From NCBI GenBank assembly GCA_045047305.1, contig JASFYO010000003.1, forward strand, positions 1-64,000: a stretch of 64,000 nt of DNA, written 5' to 3'. Each line of letters starts with the position of its first letter. Position 1 is the first letter of the stretch. The DNA is from Planctomycetota bacterium (GTDB lineage: Bacteria > Planctomycetota > UBA1135). Positions 33,001-45,000 of this stretch are shown piece after piece. Position numbers: made by a program.

Positions 33001-36000
33001 GGCGACGGGCGTGAGGAAGTTTTGGCCGTGCGCCTGGTCTCTCCCGACAAAGGCGAGAAAAGCCTGGTCGGGTATTTGCTGCGCTTCTAGTCGAGTTGTG
33101 TCCACAAGGCCTTGAGATAGCGGCCTTCGGGGAAGTCGATACGTACTGGGTGGTCTGGACCGGCTCCCGTTTCCCGCAGTACACGAATGGTGCGCAAACG
33201 CGCCGCGCGGCGGATGATTTCCTGAAAGGTGAGTGGTTCAAGGAGGCCGCTGCAGGAACAACTGATGAAGAAACCGCCATCCTTCACCAAAGGAATCGCA
33301 AGCTTGTTGATGTCGTTGTACTTCGCTTTTCCCTCTTCAAAGTCACGCCGGCTGCGAATGAACTTTGGCGGGTCCACGATCACAATGTCGAATTGCTTGC
33401 CGTTGTTGGCTAGCGTACGCAAGTAGCTGAATGCATCGGCATGGGTGAACTTGATGTTCTTCAGATGATTGATGTTCGCATTGCGCTTGGCTTGCTCAAT
33501 TGCTTTCTCATCCAGGTCGATACCGCGCACCTCACTTGCGCCAGCAGCAGCGGCATTCAGAGAGAAGCCTCCGGTGTAAGAACAAACGTCCAGCACCGAG
33601 GGTGGGTTGCCCGCATCCGCCAATCGCTTGACTAAGGCTGCAAGGCGTGCGCGGTTTTCACGTTGGTCACAGAAGAAGCCGGTCTTATGGCCTTCCGCCT
33701 GGAACACTTCATAGGTGATGGCGCCTTCTTCAAACTGAAAGCGTGGCGGACAGCCTGCCGAGCGCTTTTCAAAGGGGATTCCACCTTCGGCTCGCGCTGC
33801 TGTTTCATCGTAGACCACACGGTGCTCTTTGGTGCCAAGTACCTCGTGGAAGGTCGGAAGCACCAATTCGAAGATATCCGCCATGGGCTCGGAGTAAGCC
33901 TCGGCGACTAGAAGCTCTCCGTAACGGTCCATGGTTAGCGCTGGGAAATCATCGCCTTCTGCGTGCAGGATACGACAAACTTCATTTGGAATGTCAGGGT
34001 CTGCTATGCGGCGTTCTGCAGCAGCACGCGCGCGCTCATGCCAGAATTCTTCCGTTGGCTCGGAATTGTCACGCGTGACCAAGCGCACCGCAATGCGCGA
34101 GTGCGGGTGAAAAAAACCCCAACCGCGGAAGTCTTGGTACTGGTCATATACAGCAACCATAGTGCCAGCCTTATGCCGCGCGGAAGTGCGGTCGACATCG
34201 CCGGACCAAACGCGGGGGCCACGCATCGGACCACGCAAAGTCACCCACGGCTCCATGCGTTCGACTGTACGGCCGGATTCACGCTCCTTGTCGCGACGCC
34301 ATTGGCCGCCACCACTGCGTCCGGAGGATTCATGGCCACGTGCACCATGTCCCCCACGGTCGTCGCGGCCGTAGTTACGGCGCCCGTCATTGCGGTCATC
34401 ATCATCGCTGTCGCGGTCGCTGCGGTGGGTGTCGTCGGAGTCACGGCCGCCGCCGCGATATGAATCTCGTCCGCCACGATCATCGCGGCGAGAATCACGT
34501 TGTCCGCCATCTTGACGAGAATCGCGGTTGCCGCTGCCGGCGTTGTCCCAAGGGCTAGCCATGTTTATTTACCTCCGAGCTTTTTGAATTTCTCGAATTG
34601 AGTTTTATTCAGCGGCATCACGGAAAGCCGGGTTTGTTTGACTAGGGCTGATTCGGCCAAGGTTTTGTCGGCGCGTACTGTGGCCAAAGTCACGGGTTCT
34701 GCAAATGCGATTTGCACTTCAAGGTCCACCGCGGTCCAGTCACCATCGGTGGCAGTCGGGTCTGGATAACCTTCACCAATTACTTTGGCCGTGCCCATCG
34801 CGGACTTGAGCTTTCCCGAGTGGTAGAACACCACGCCGTCGCCCTTTTTCATTAAGCGAAGGTTGTTGCGCGCCTGATAATTACGCACGCCATCCCAACA
34901 GGTGCTGCCATCTTTGAGGAACATCTCAAAGGTGTATTTCGTGGGTTCTTCCTTTACCAGCCAGTATGCCATGGGGGGAATTCTAACCGCGTCGCGGGGG
35001 CTTAAGTAGGCGGGAGAGATAGACTAAGCATCATGGGTGAACGCCTAGCCGATTACGACCGTTTGAAGCTCGAAGAGCTCAATTACAACAGCTACCTGAA
35101 GATTCCGGAGCTGACTTCGCTGCAGGAATTGCGTAGTGATCCGGTGCACCACGATGAAATGTTTTTCATCGTCATCCACCAGAGTTTTGAGCTCTGGTTT
35201 AAGGAGATGCTCCACGAAGCCGGTCTTATGGTCCAGTGCTTTGAAAAAGGAGACATCGCCCACTCGCTGAAGGTTCTAAAGCGCATTCAGGCCATTTTGA
35301 CCTGCCTGACGCAGCAGATTCAGCTGCTCGGCACGCTAACCCCAGAGGAGTTTGCTGGCTTTCGTGAGGCCTTAGGTACAGGCAGCGGCTTTCAGTCGGT
35401 ACAGTTTCGTGAAATGGAATTCGTCTGTGGTCAGCGGGATCCTTGGTTCTTCCAGTTTTTTGAGAATCAGCCGGATGAACTCGCCCGCTTGAGAGCACGC
35501 TTTGAGGCTCCAAGCCTGTATGATTTTTTCCTGCGCGCCATGGCGCGGGAGGGATATGCCGTCCCCCAAGCCATTCTGGAACGGGATTTGTCGGAGACCC
35601 ACAGCATGAACGATGAACTCGTCATCGTTTTTCGCGATCTCTACCAGAACCCTGGAAATAACTATCACTGGGTACTCGCCTGCGAAGCCCTTCTCGATCT
35701 CGACACCATGTGGTCAAACTTCCGCTCCGCGCACATCCTGATGGTATCGCGCACGATTGGCGGCAAGAAGGGCACTGGCGGGTCTAGTGGCGTCCCATTC
35801 CTGGAATCGCGTCTGCCGCTGCGCTTTTTCCCCGAGTTATGGGAAATGCGGAATGCCGAATGGAACACCAATAAGTAAAACCGTGACACTCTCTCAATCT
35901 CTTAACGGCAAGCACGCATTGGTGTGTGGTGCAAGCTCTGGCATCGGACGTGAAATCGCCTTAGCCATGGCGGCGCAAGGTGCCCGTTTGTCCTTTTTTG

Positions 36001-42000: not shown

Positions 42001-45000
42001 CAACTCTCTCGCGAGTTTAGCCGCCAGGCGAATGGCGATTCCAAGATGAAGGCGATTTGGTGGATGGCGTCTGCGATGGGCCAAAGCAATGACTATCGCG
42101 GCACGGTGTTTGACTATCAGCCGGTTTGGGGGACGGGCGCGGCACTCGTTGGATTAACTCCTGCCACCAAACTCGGCGGCGGCTTGGAGTACGATGAAGA
42201 CGACACTGAGTATTACCGCGGGGATCGCAATGTCCTTGCTAGCGTCAAGAAAGAAGAGGTAAATCCATCATGAGCCATCCCATCCGCACTCATAAAGCGC
42301 CTGATCCAGTCGGTGCCTACCCACACGCCCGACGCCACGGCGACCTCCTCTTTCTTTCTGGAGTAGGGCCGCGCCAAGCTGGCACCAATGCTATCCCGGG
42401 TGGCCCCATCCACGACGCGGATGGCAATCCCAACGATTACGATATCCAAGCTCAAACCGAAGCCGTCATCGCCAACGTGAAAGCGGTGCTCGAAGCTTGC
42501 GGTGCGACCTTAGATGATGTTCTAGATGTCACCGTCTATCTGATTGACATGGACCGTGACTTCAAAGGTTACAATAAGGTCTACGCGAAGCACTTCACCA
42601 CGGTTCAGGCTGCACGTACCACCTTGGCGATTCGCGCCCTGCCAACACCGATTGCGGTGGAGTTCAAAGTCATTGCTCAAGCGCCTTCCGCAAAATGATT
42701 ATTGATATCAGCCCTGTGATTAGTGCCCGGATTGGCGTTTGGCCAGGGGATACGGGGTTTTCGCGGGAGGTTTGCCTGGATACGAATCAAGGCGATCACA
42801 TCACCTTAAGCGCGATTCAAACCACGTTGCACTTAGGGGCTCATGTCGATGCGCCAAACCATTATCGTGCCGGCGCCAAGGCCATCCATGAACGTGCCTT
42901 GGAGCGTTATTACGGCCCATGCCAAGTGGTGCACGTTGACTTGCCACGAGGTACACGGATCCGCCCGGAGCATTTGAAGGTAGCGATTGAGGCTCCAAGA
43001 GTCTTATTTCATACTGGGAGTTTTCCAAACCCAGAGTCTTGGAACTCGGATTTCAATGCACTGAGCAAAGAATTAGTAGATGACTTGCAGGCGCAAGGGG
43101 TCGACCTGATTGGAATTGATACGCCCTCCATTGATTTGCAAGACGACAAGGTGTTGCAGTCCCACCAAGCGATTGCCAATCATGATATGGCCATCCTTGA
43201 AGGCGTCGTTCTCACCTCTGTTGAGCCTGGCTTGTACACTTTGTGCGCTTTGCCGTTGCCGCTTGAAGGCGCCGATGCCTCGCCGGTCCGCGCCGTTCTC
43301 ATCCGCGACTAACTAGCGAGTCGCGTCTTCGGGATCTTCGCGCCAAGAACCGACCACGCGCTTCATCACCTGCTCGAAGTCCTCGGGTAAATCGGAGGGC
43401 GCTGGGTGATCGGTAATTTCACGGACCTGCCGATATTGCTTTAGGTAGGCGCGGCATGGGGGACACATCATGAGGTGCCCGCTGACGAAAATGCGCTCCC
43501 AAAGGCTTACCTCTCTATCCAGATAGCGATCTAGGGCCGCATAGAGGTGATCGCAACGGAGTAGGAGGTCTTTAGAAGGCATGGTCTTCCATATCTTCGC
43601 ATTTCCAGCTTGGGCGTGACAGAGTTTCTGGCTTGAAAGCAATCGGGCTTCGGTTATCCTCGGGACACCCCCCAAATCTGATAAGAGCCCATCATGAAAC
43701 TAAAAGCTTGTTTGTCCTTCTTGTTTTTGATCCTTGCACTTGGCGCTTGTTCGAGCGATTCTTCTGATGATACGGAAGGAAACGCTCAAAACGGGGTCGA
43801 CGAATTGGATTATTAAAACAGAAAATTCCCGCTTAAACCGTGTAATTACGCGGTAAAAAGAGGTGGATTGAGTTTTTTCTGTTAACCAACTGGGTGTCGT
43901 TCGTATGCTTCCACATACGGCCGGCTCCCTGGCCCGTTAATCACGTAAGCAGATGAACACTCCAAAATTCAACTTAACCCTCCTTCTTCTTGGACTTGCG
44001 GCATTTGTCGCAACCCCATCTTCCTCTTTTGCACAAGAAGATAAAGGTGGTGTGGAATCAACCCAAGGGGTTGATACCGGCGAAGTCCAAGGCACCGTTG
44101 AGAAGATCAATCAAGATGCTGGCGAAGCCCAAGGCAAAGCTGGTAAGAAAGGCAAGAAAGGTCTTGGTGGCGGAAAAACCACCAAAGAGCAGCGCCAGTT
44201 GATGCACGCCGTTGCCGCAGAAATGGGCAAGTACCGCGCAAACACGGCACGCTTGGCTCAAGCCCGCAGCGTTGGCGAAAGGAAGAATAACGCCGACTTG
44301 ATCAAGAAGGCCAATGAGATGGCGCCGAAGTTGGAAGCCCAGCACAAGGAAGCTATGGATGCTTTACGCGCCAAATATGGCGAAAAAGAGGTGGCTGCAG
44401 TGGTCGAACGCCTGAATAGCCAATCCAAGTCCGACATCAAGAAACATAAAAAGTTTGCTGGCGATGCCACCAAGAAGGGCAATAAACAAGCCAAGGAAAC
44501 CAAAGGCAAAGGCAAGAAAAAGCAAAAGCACCGCGAAGGAAAAGAAGAAGGTTCTGACTCCTAAATAACCCCCAAACACAACAACACAATGTCCAAACTG
44601 TTAACTCTTACCTGCCTTTTCGGCGCGCTGACATTTGCCAGTTGCTCCGGCGAGGAAAAACCTGCCGACATCACCACCACCGATGAAGCAGCAACTGTTA
44701 TTTCCGAAAGTGATGCCGCTGCAAACGCAGCAGAAGAAATCACCGACGAAGCAGCCGCGAATGCTGCACTAGACAGCATGCTTGACGGCTAAACCTTAGC
44801 TTCCACGTCGACGACGCCCACTGCTTCGACGACGTCGCTCTTTAGAAGCTGCAGTTCCCTCGGGAGCTGCAGCTTCTTCTTTTTCAATCTCAGCTTTGAC
44901 GGCTTCGGCACCGCCTTCCAAGCCGAGTTCGGCGCGAACGTCAATCGGGCCGCGGTAAAGGCATGCCACGGCCTCGTCGATGGTGGCAGTGAGGCGTGGG

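Follow-up and report, generated by a model that had tools for sequence, protein, structure and literature searches.

A planctomycete tryptophan operon in which a luciferase-like monooxygenase and an asparaginase-like hydrolase most probably split kynurenine to aspartate and 2-aminophenol

Background

The operon described here raises the question of how kynurenine is carried to ring fission where the genes for tryptophan 2,3-dioxygenase (TDO) and kynurenine formamidase (KynB) enclose those for 2-aminophenol meta-cleavage. The classical kynurenine/3-hydroxyanthranilate meta-cleavage pathway of Burkholderia and animals comprises TDO, KynB, KMO, kynureninase (KynU), 3-HAO, ACMSD, AMSDH and 2-aminomuconate deaminase (bioRxiv 10.64898/2026.06.05.730449), and for the actinobacterial ARO microcompartment the upstream precursor of 2-aminophenol has been stated to be unknown (PMC10470539). 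Our analysis suggests that this is most probably an aerobic tryptophan catabolic operon, the net result of which is that two uncharacterized enzymes split kynurenine to aspartate and 2-aminophenol. If true, one of the most thoroughly studied routes of amino-acid metabolism would gain a new branch and two new enzyme activities, and 2-aminophenol dioxygenases would have a natural substrate.

Results and discussion

Operon organization

The window, a stretch of 64,000 nucleotides from a Planctomycetota genome that is 87.7% complete, contains nine + strand ORFs at 35033..43312, the first three separated by 4 and 8 bp and the rest joined by six 4-bp overlaps (Table 1). All nine gave Pfam matches over the cut-off: Trp_dioxygenase, adh_short, Bac_luciferase (weak), Asparaginase_II, Aldedh, LigB (two genes), Ribonuc_L-PSP and Cyclase. 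Coordinates, spacing and Pfam matches bear out the preliminary description of nine abutting same-strand genes, and a real operon of nine genes is thus confirmed, encoding TDO, an SDR, a luciferase-like monooxygenase (LLM), a class 3 asparaginase-like hydrolase, AmnC, AmnB, AmnA, AmnD and KynB. The best NCBIfam matches, none of which reached its own curated cut-off, were to TDO, hydroxymuconic semialdehyde dehydrogenase, Rid and arylformamidase; AmnC and AmnD are family-level matches below equivalog cut-offs and are orthologous to genes of classical clusters. AmnB and AmnA match the solved beta and alpha chains of 2-aminophenol 1,6-dioxygenase (5e-103 and 2e-55) and make up a two-subunit dioxygenase with the metal-site motifs present. 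The KynB ORF contains HxGxHxDxPxH, which we take to be the formamidase/cyclase-family motif.

Table 1. Genes of the operon, their positions in the window and the evidence for each assignment
Gene product	Position	Strand	Evidence
Tryptophan 2,3-dioxygenase (KynA), 281 aa	35033..35878	+	PF03301 3e-51; TIGR03036 277 bits vs cut-off 391
Atypical SDR without YxxxK; putative 2-oxo-3-hexenedioate reductase	35883..36674	+	Pfam, motifs; start GTG 35883 or ATG 35853
Luciferase-like flavin monooxygenase (LLM), uncharacterized family, 412 aa	36683..37921	+	PF00296 8.5e-9; predicted-model fold matches
Class 3 asparaginase-like Ser-Lys hydrolase, distinct subfamily, 369 aa	37918..39027	+	PF06089 1.3e-45; ReAIV/ReAV by sequence and fold; alternative start ATG 37957
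AmnC-type 2-aminomuconate semialdehyde dehydrogenase, 468 aa	39024..40430	+	TIGR03216 best match, 532 bits vs cut-off 693; 50-58% to classical-cluster ALDH
2-Aminophenol 1,6-dioxygenase beta (catalytic) subunit AmnB	40427..41341	+	8ihg, 3vsg, 7txy at 5e-103 to 8e-91
2-Aminophenol 1,6-dioxygenase alpha subunit AmnA, 311 aa	41338..42273	+	7txy_A 2.4e-55; 3vsg_A; 8ihg_B
Rid-family 2-aminomuconate deaminase AmnD, 142 aa	42270..42698	+	PF01042; 49-67% to classical-cluster Rid gene
Kynurenine formamidase KynB (cyclase family), 205 aa	42695..43312	+	PF04199; TIGR03035 204 bits vs cut-off 223; HxGxHxDxPxH motif

A profile search found no kynureninase in this 87.7% complete genome, and tblastn queries with KMO, 3-HAO, ACMSD, KynU, DmpH and DmpE gave no match in it at E 1e-3, which upholds the earlier statement that kynureninase is missing here.

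Distribution and co-occurrence

A search with the hydrolase gave the same 545 relatives as reported before, the best 80 loci being 67-95% identical. Within those 80 loci, tblastn found ALDH in 79, LLM in 78, SDR in 60, AmnB in 39 and AmnA in 38 (the alpha and beta subunits cross-match), RidA in 34, and KynB and TDO in 11 each, all within 2 of the previous counts. TDO is unlinked in most archaeal loci, a caveat already raised and one that weighs against our preferred reading. The hydrolase subfamily occurs in 10 of the 201 genomes sampled from this phylum, AmnB in the same 10, LLM in those 10 plus one, and TDO in 100. Generic asparaginases in 49 other genomes of the sample do not track LLM or AmnB, unlike the subfamily, and all five genomes without a hydrolase beside the LLM carry one elsewhere.

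Among 65 hydrolase carriers, which are incomplete genomes, TDO was found in 62, and AmnB in 61, its absence from the results for the remaining 4 counting against our reading. None of the 65 has kynureninase over the cut-off (two matches reached 48-49 bits), 3-HAO (positive controls 5/5 detected) or a KMO-like gene (controls 7/7 detected, one being the source of the query, a single protein). The claim that carriers have TDO and no kynureninase holds in the larger set, with the 3 exceptions for TDO, and the 3-HAO search, previously called uninformative, now has its controls. KynU absence is also frequent on its own (none at E 1e-40 in 45 of 90 TDO-positive non-carriers), which lessens the weight of the exclusion. 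In family f23 all 8 genomes have TDO; 3 carry LLM, hydrolase and AmnB, and the other 5 carry KynU, 3-HAO, KMO-like and ACMSD-type genes with the same SDR and no AmnB. This profile points to a module swap, in which the new and the classical kynurenine module replace each other one for one within the family. The hydrolase was found in 149 of 151 Poseidoniales genomes sampled; in this large group of marine archaea the signature gene is almost always present.

Proposed pathway

The pathway of the preliminary description is supported, and our analysis adds as controls the complementary distribution with respect to KynU, KMO and 3-HAO, a hydrolase-KynB fusion and the aspartyl-anchoring residues. From gene identities, folds, conserved residues, co-occurrence, exclusion and fusion we infer the substrates and products of the LLM, the hydrolase and the SDR. 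TDO would form N-formylkynurenine. The FMNH2-dependent LLM, the substrate of which could be N-formylkynurenine rather than kynurenine, would place an oxygen between ring and ketone (Baeyer-Villiger, aryl migration) to give an aryl beta-aspartyl ester; if the ortho amine is free, this ester could rearrange to N4-(2-hydroxyphenyl)asparagine. At its metal/Arg site the hydrolase would bind the alpha-amino acid moiety, and it would free L-aspartate through a beta-aspartyl-enzyme at Ser65, and KynB could deformylate either before the LLM step or after hydrolysis. AmnBA, AmnC and AmnD would take 2-aminophenol to 2-oxo-3-hexenedioate, probably reduced by the SDR to 2-oxoadipate. With modest confidence we favor Baeyer-Villiger insertion into kynurenine or N-formylkynurenine followed by hydrolysis to aspartate and 2-aminophenol; in this preferred reading, held somewhat above even chance, LLM, hydrolase and AmnBA replace KMO, kynureninase, 3-HAO and ACMSD between kynurenine and 2-aminomuconate semialdehyde.

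The monooxygenase

The LLM sequence gave no match in the PDB at E 1, and its luciferase TIM-barrel fold is supported by Pfam and by a predicted model (pLDDT 92) that matches RslO1 (Z 29.6), luciferase (Z 28.5) and 3,6-DKCMO (Z 25.1) at 14-18% identity. All solved relatives are 11-18% identical and include desulfonating, C-N-cleaving and F420 enzymes; therefore the fold does not fix the reaction. We found no characterized member of this LLM family and know of no sequence signature for type II Baeyer-Villiger monooxygenases. As a Baeyer-Villiger substrate, an ortho-aminoaryl ketone has low electrophilicity, which counts against the reading we prefer. So does the flavin reductase search: the operon encodes none and no PF01613 or PF03358 member was found in this genome, whereas the other 4 of 5 genomes checked have at least one. 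According to PMC12239570, a catabolic LLM oxidizes an acyclic ketone in Baeyer-Villiger fashion, and a neighboring reductase is missing for some homologues. LLM relatives that keep the invariant residues also occur with no hydrolase nearby, on a Streptomyces clavuligerus plasmid (49% identity) and in genome G155, a further point against us; the plasmid search with the LLM returned three records of one Streptomyces plasmid, with an uninformative gene context. The LLM of the jakobid protist Andalucia has a class I glutamine amidotransferase-like domain as its fusion partner, and also a reductase-like tail, which is a lead only.

The same gene set and aspartyl site would be accounted for if the LLM, as a KMO analogue filling the slot left empty in all 65 carriers, hydroxylated kynurenine at C3, and the hydrolase split 3-hydroxykynurenine at its aryl-C(O) carbon-carbon bond to yield 2-aminophenol and aspartate. 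Ser-Lys amidohydrolases in general cleave C-N and C-O acyl bonds. We consider C3 hydroxylation unlikely, because the hydrolase has this apparatus intact, known for such cleavage (PMC12292245), the LLM of G155 overlaps a KMO-like gene, suggesting different jobs (one genome), and the fusion partner in Andalucia belongs to another amide-hydrolase family.

The hydrolase

The hydrolase matches ReAIV of Rhizobium at 4.2e-15, in line with the E 4e-15 given earlier, and its fold also matches ReAIV and ReAV. Subfamily members score 582-725 bits versus 27-104 for generic asparaginases, and in a tree lineage A, that of the operon studied, and lineage B, about 30-38% identical and with the same gene set, are separated from 20 generic asparaginases (100/100). 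The equivalents of ReAV R47, S48, K51, S80, H139, Y156, D187 and K263, taken from the catalytic residues listed in PMC11024299 and PMC12292245, are present in 78 of 78 sequences, and both zinc cysteines (Cys135 and Cys189) in 77. In class 3 asparaginases these residues hold the alpha-amino/alpha-carboxyl group in place and give rise to the beta-acyl-enzyme (PMC12292245 and PMC12951835); the hydrolase keeps those that bind an L-aspartyl group. The Cys135/Lys138/Cys189 zinc site of ReAV is Cys, Glu, Cys in 77 of 78 lineage A sequences, and we rejected the Lys-to-Glu change (CSGEH) as the marker of a new job because lineage B, in which the hydrolase is fused, keeps Lys. In lineage B the hydrolase adjoins LLM in 12 of 13 loci, TDO is present in 10 of 13, and the hydrolase is fused to KynB in 9/9 ORFs examined; AmnB was not found in 2 of 5 lineage B genomes, which again counts against our reading.

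Were the LLM to detach the ring on its own, with flavin-N5-peroxide chemistry as one example, the hydrolase could be a plain asparaginase or side-product enzyme and would not free aspartate from an aryl conjugate. The full set of class 3 catalytic residues, the activity retained by K138A ReAV (PMC11024299) and the LLM relatives lacking a hydrolase agree with this; we nevertheless hold it rather improbable, given that the subfamily, not the generic asparaginases, tracks LLM and AmnB exactly, that it is fused to KynB, and that it is found elsewhere in 5 of 5 genomes in which it is not beside the LLM.

Ring cleavage and lower steps

The ring might also be opened first, with AmnBA cleaving LLM-made 3-hydroxykynurenine and the hydrolase then removing aspartate to leave 2-aminomuconate semialdehyde and no free 2-aminophenol. 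Gene set and stoichiometry would be unchanged and a toxic, autoxidising intermediate avoided (2-aminophenol toxicity, PMC10470539). However, AmnB aligns almost gap-free to plain 2-aminophenol-cleaving enzymes with the metal-site motifs kept, and its sequence shows no inserted or remodelled segment that would make room for a bulky 3-substituent, so this order appears quite improbable.

The SDR is 48-64% identical to genes beside 3-HAO/ACMSD/KynU or KMO/KynU clusters and 57-59% identical to genes in three more KynU genomes. Because it is common to classical kynurenine-pathway operons, we assign it to the lower pathway, where it probably reduces 2-oxo-3-hexenedioate to 2-oxoadipate, its putative substrate and product. 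A role as partner in the LLM step was rejected, since orthologues occur in classical clusters without LLM and lineage B has DmpH/DmpE-like genes instead. Of the AmnE/F/G/H-type lower steps, DmpH and DmpE gave no match and DmpG none over the cut-off in this 87.7% complete genome; HGLS (2-oxoadipate dioxygenase) was not found in it, and its sole FAA-hydrolase gene is HpaG-like and below the cut-off.

That LLM, hydrolase and AmnBACD degrade another aminoaromatic compound, with a loose tryptophan link, would suit the 11 of 80 best loci with TDO and its presence in half of the phylum sample anyway, and is very improbable in view of the operonic coupling of TDO and KynB, seen here and in both lineages, the hydrolase-KynB fusion and the one-for-one swap in f23.

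Comparison with known systems

The operon shares with the classical kynurenine pathway its entry (TDO and formamidase), its exit (semialdehyde dehydrogenase and Rid deaminase) and convergence at 2-aminomuconate semialdehyde, and sister genomes with the classical pathway carry an orthologous SDR-ALDH-Rid-KynB block. It differs in that KMO, KynU and 3-HAO were not found in the 65 carriers, in having no PLP step, and in its predicted products, aspartate and 2-aminophenol instead of alanine and CO2; no carboxymuconate semialdehyde would arise and hence, presumably, no quinolinate/NAD branch. In 4-hydroxyacetophenone catabolism an aryl-ketone Baeyer-Villiger monooxygenase, an esterase and a ring dioxygenase act by a similar logic, and the oxygenase-hydrolase-dioxygenase-dehydrogenase order proposed here is the same. 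With 2-aminophenol meta-cleavage (amn/cnb clusters of nitroaromatic degraders; ARO microcompartment locus, PMC10470539) the operon shares AmnBA, AmnC and AmnD homologues and reaction order; it is distinguished by a tryptophan-linked upper module and the lack of shell proteins in the operon, and lineage A has the SDR, with no DmpH/DmpE/DmpG found in this genome, where lineage B has DmpH/DmpE-like genes. The hydrolase has the fold, both Ser-Lys pairs, the Arg, His, Tyr and Asp and the two Zn cysteines of the class 3 L-asparaginases ReAV/ReAIV of Rhizobium etli (PF06089), from which it differs in identity (22-26%), in Glu for Lys138 in lineage A, in forming a clade apart from generic members and in its fixed link to LLM, AmnBA and KynB. 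The LLM has the TIM-barrel fold (Z 25-30) of the luciferase-like Baeyer-Villiger monooxygenases (3,6-diketocamphane monooxygenase, MsnO8 and the progesterone LLM of Caenibius, the last from PMC12239570), at 14-18% identity, with an asparaginase-fold partner and an amino acid substrate predicted here.

More tentatively, and with slightly less than even confidence, we propose an old, PLP-free third route from kynurenine to ring fission. In it (formyl)kynurenine would undergo Baeyer-Villiger oxidation by a new LLM family, and one clade of class 3 asparaginases would act as aryl beta-aspartyl hydrolase; the route would serve Marine Group II archaea as their default way of breaking down tryptophan, be present in several phyla of bacteria and, in the form of a fused oxygenase-amidase-flavin-handling protein, in a jakobid protist, and supply the natural 2-aminophenol for which the AmnBA of nitroaromatic degraders evolved. 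No description of this route was found in the open literature, subscription journals lying outside the search. If true, core genes of Marine Group II archaea would acquire a function, and genes annotated as 'asparaginase II' would be seen to include some that act on another substrate. A plasmid search with the hydrolase gave only generic asparaginases at no more than 32% identity among the 20 of 80 matches listed, and a metagenome scan with a Micromonosporaceae LLM gave one ordinary SDR-LLM-hydrolase locus.

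Operon layout and gene identities

The operon belongs to a Planctomycetota genome (G000) of 2.83 Mb that is 87.7% complete. Its nine genes are spaced by intergenic gaps of 4 and 8 bp followed by six 4-bp overlaps, and no regulator gene lies within the operon itself. The top NCBIfam models are TDO, hydroxymuconic semialdehyde dehydrogenase, Rid and arylformamidase, each scoring under its curated cut-off, and the two LigB subunits match solved 2-aminophenol 1,6-dioxygenases. AmnA also ends in a C-terminal extension of some 40 residues, enriched in Asp, Glu and Tyr (window 42150-42273), that lies past the region aligning to solved alpha subunits.

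Features of the operon and its flanks
Feature	Position	Strand	Annotation or setting
Nine operon genes	35033-43312	+	Pfam: TDO, SDR, luciferase-like protein, asparaginase II, ALDH, LigB (two), Rid, cyclase
EVE-domain gene	34565-34972	-	divergent flank of operon
zf-HC2 (anti-sigma-like) gene	43313-43675	-	convergent flank of operon

Both pathway ends, classical kynurenine formation and 2-aminophenol meta-cleavage, are known. The operon is not a member of the classical kynurenine pathway and, compared with the amn cluster, it is not complete; functionally it resembles a hybrid of both pathways. No description of a bridge formed by the luciferase-like flavin monooxygenase (LLM) and the asparaginase-like hydrolase was found in the open literature searched by listings, and these proteins are probably two new enzyme activities. 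According to a paper on the ARO microcompartment, it is not known what compound gives rise to 2-aminophenol, and none of the words tryptophan, kynurenine, luciferase and asparaginase appears in its main text (PMC10470539).

Distribution of the LLM-hydrolase pair

Among the best 80 hydrolase loci, the closest relatives (95-80% identity) come from records titled mostly Planctomycetota, and the remainder are mostly Poseidoniales or Euryarchaeota, plus Myxococcota and Bdellovibrionales. These loci contain ALDH in 79 cases, LLM in 78, SDR in 60, Rid in 34, and KynB and TDO in 11 each; the figures for AmnB (39) and AmnA (38) include cross-hits. Three candidate deformylases occur in the same loci with zero overlap: KynB in 11, a PF00551 formyltransferase-family gene in 32 and a BD-FAE alpha/beta hydrolase in 13. 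The latter two may substitute for KynB in archaea. In a Myxococcota operon, a gene for HGLS, a 2-oxoadipate dioxygenase/decarboxylase, lies immediately 3' of KynB (L018:15620-16429); no HGLS was found in G000.

We then consider a sample of 201 evenly drawn genomes of the window's phylum, each at least 85% complete, in which the hydrolase profile gave a clean split between 10 genomes at 582-725 bits and 49 at 104 bits or less. AmnB was restricted to the same 10 genomes and the LLM to these plus one more, G155, even though the genes lie on separate contigs in several carriers. TDO was present in all 10 carriers (100 of 201 genomes overall) and kynureninase in none, the latter matching 46 of the 201 at E 1e-40 and 22 over its cut-off.

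Adding the genomes behind 55 of the 80 loci gave 65 carriers; the 25 loci outside this set are mainly on short contigs. TDO was found in 62 of the 65 and AmnB in 61, and no kynureninase exceeded the cut-off in any, with two matches of 48-49 bits. Likewise, none of the 65 had 3-HAO (5/5 positive controls) or a KMO-like gene (7/7 positive controls, one being the source of the query). These counts are not independent trials, because the carriers are related and incomplete, and since 45 of 90 TDO-positive non-carriers also have no kynureninase match at E 1e-40, the absence in carriers should not be over-read. In Poseidoniales, the order of carrier G001, the hydrolase subfamily occurs in 149 of 151 genomes, as judged with a profile that itself contains members of the order.

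Within the phylum sample, 45 TDO-positive genomes show neither the kynureninase route nor the new module. Kynureninase-like genes at 142-170 bits, under the TIGR01814 cut-off, occur in 24 genomes, and several of them adjoin TDO or KynB.

Replacement of the classical module

The family f23 contains both types of pathway. TDO is present in 8/8 sampled genomes; three carry LLM, hydrolase and AmnB. The remaining five have no AmnB; they possess a KMO-like gene, 3-HAO and kynureninase, the last of these adjoined by an ACMSD-type amidohydrolase in all five. In two of these five (L137, L138), the classical genes adjoin SDR, ALDH, Rid and KynB genes with 57-67% identity to those of the window; in the other three the SDR lies elsewhere in the genome (57-59% identity). 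The same block, at 45-60% identity, adjoins KynU and KMO-like genes in two more genomes (L141, L146), giving 4 of the 20 KynU regions examined. Because this flanking block is common to both, the two operon types share their ends, and LLM, hydrolase and AmnBA stand in place of KMO, KynU, 3-HAO and ACMSD (classical steps as in the Introduction of bioRxiv 10.64898/2026.06.05.730449). We infer that both modules must run from kynurenine to 2-aminomuconate semialdehyde.

Since the SDR is common to the classical and new operons, it acts downstream, where it would reduce 2-oxo-3-hexenedioate to 2-oxoadipate. This prediction draws on its lack of a YxxxK motif, on the 2-oxoadipate dioxygenase gene behind KynB in L018, and on the distant lineage described below (lineage B), where the SDR is missing and DmpH/DmpE-like genes are found, with no SDR in 2/2 lineage B genomes.

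A second lineage

Of 201 genomes from the phylum that includes the Bdellovibrionales carrier G003, 31 have the LLM; 18 of these score 535-628 bits and the other 13 no more than 339 bits. Near the 13 distant LLMs (32-38% identity), 12 loci hold a distant hydrolase (28-35%), 11 KynB, 10 TDO and 4 Amn dioxygenase genes. The asparaginase II domain is fused to the cyclase/KynB domain in 9/9 long lineage B ORFs tested. None of five distant-lineage genomes examined has kynureninase, and AmnB lies elsewhere in the genome in three of five without it at the locus. The hydrolase is present in 11 of 17 regions with a close LLM and elsewhere in the genome in 5/5 tested of the other six. An unrooted 37-row tree places both hydrolase lineages apart from 20 generic asparaginases, all from the window's phylum, with support 100/100.

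Proposed chemistry

We consider it likely that LLM and hydrolase together effect the net conversion of kynurenine, with or without free 2-aminophenol. The carbon bookkeeping balances: kynurenine plus one oxygen and water equals 2-aminophenol plus aspartate. Given an LLM and a Ser-Lys acyl hydrolase, the simplest route would have the LLM insert oxygen between the kynurenine ring and the ketone, and the hydrolase would cleave the aryl ester, or the anilide arising by an O-to-N shift. Ring hydroxylation by the LLM followed by C-C hydrolysis would give identical products, 2-aminophenol and aspartate; Baeyer-Villiger oxidation and hydrolysis is the chemistry toward which we lean somewhat. N-formylkynurenine is a better electrophile than kynurenine, and if it were the LLM substrate, hydrolase and KynB would act in sequence, which would suit the hydrolase-KynB fusion. 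The usual order, KynB first, is equally plausible because classical clusters hold orthologues of this KynB. Baeyer-Villiger oxygen insertion on an acyclic ketone is described for a catabolic LLM, some of whose homologues have no adjacent reductase (PMC12239570), and a BVMO-esterase operon is reported for acetone (PMC6215540).

Hydrolase and LLM anatomy

The hydrolase model (pLDDT 80) matches strongly only ReAV and ReAIV, the class 3 L-asparaginases of Rhizobium etli. In an alignment of 78 rows (window plus 77 of the 80 loci), R64, S65, K68, S94, H146, Y163, D194 and K256, the equivalents of ReAV residues, are invariant, and both metal-site cysteines are kept in 77 rows. The position of ReAV Lys138 is Glu in 77/78 rows; this is not the key change, because lineage B keeps Lys and a K138A mutant of ReAV retains activity (PMC11024299). 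Judged from these residues, the pocket still looks like an L-aspartyl site, which fits the kynurenine side chain. Two hydrolases (L078:10001-11056 and L212:7699-8703) have a rebuilt metal site, in which the ligands Cys, Glu and Cys are Ser, His and Asp.

The LLM model (pLDDT 92) has the luciferase fold, with matches to RslO1 (Z 29.6), luciferase (28.5), 3,6-diketocamphane monooxygenase (25.1), MsnO8 (24.6) and RutA (23.6), all at 14-18% identity. The family is small and tight: its alignment has invariant positions, and of 1.84 billion clusters 407 matched at E 0.001, many being fragments. In G000, searches with PF01613 and PF03358 found no flavin reductase, a poor fit to an FMNH2-dependent LLM; the other four of five genomes have at least one.

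Several LLM relatives fit the proposed pathway less well. One stands alone, with no hydrolase nearby, on a Streptomyces clavuligerus plasmid (L133:20001-21245); it and a Micromonosporaceae LLM (P0122) are nested inside the core LLM clade. Micromonospora is also the organism of the ARO microcompartment study (PMC10470539). G155 carries the classical pathway but lacks both AmnB and the hydrolase subfamily; on its contig C41 (L178:4954-9417) the LLM (43%) and a second KMO-like gene overlap, next to a PLP aminotransferase and cNMP-binding proteins, a neighbourhood that still points to kynurenine chemistry. In the eukaryote Andalucia godoyi, ANDGO_01838 (P0124) is a fusion of an LLM (44%) with ApbE and a domain like class I glutamine amidotransferases; the similarity of its tail to flavin reductases (score 0.87) is no more than a lead. 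This fusion suggests an alternative hydrolase partner and a built-in flavin supply in the protist. The same LLM-GATase junction is seen, through a weak Pfam match, in an unnamed fragment (P0232).
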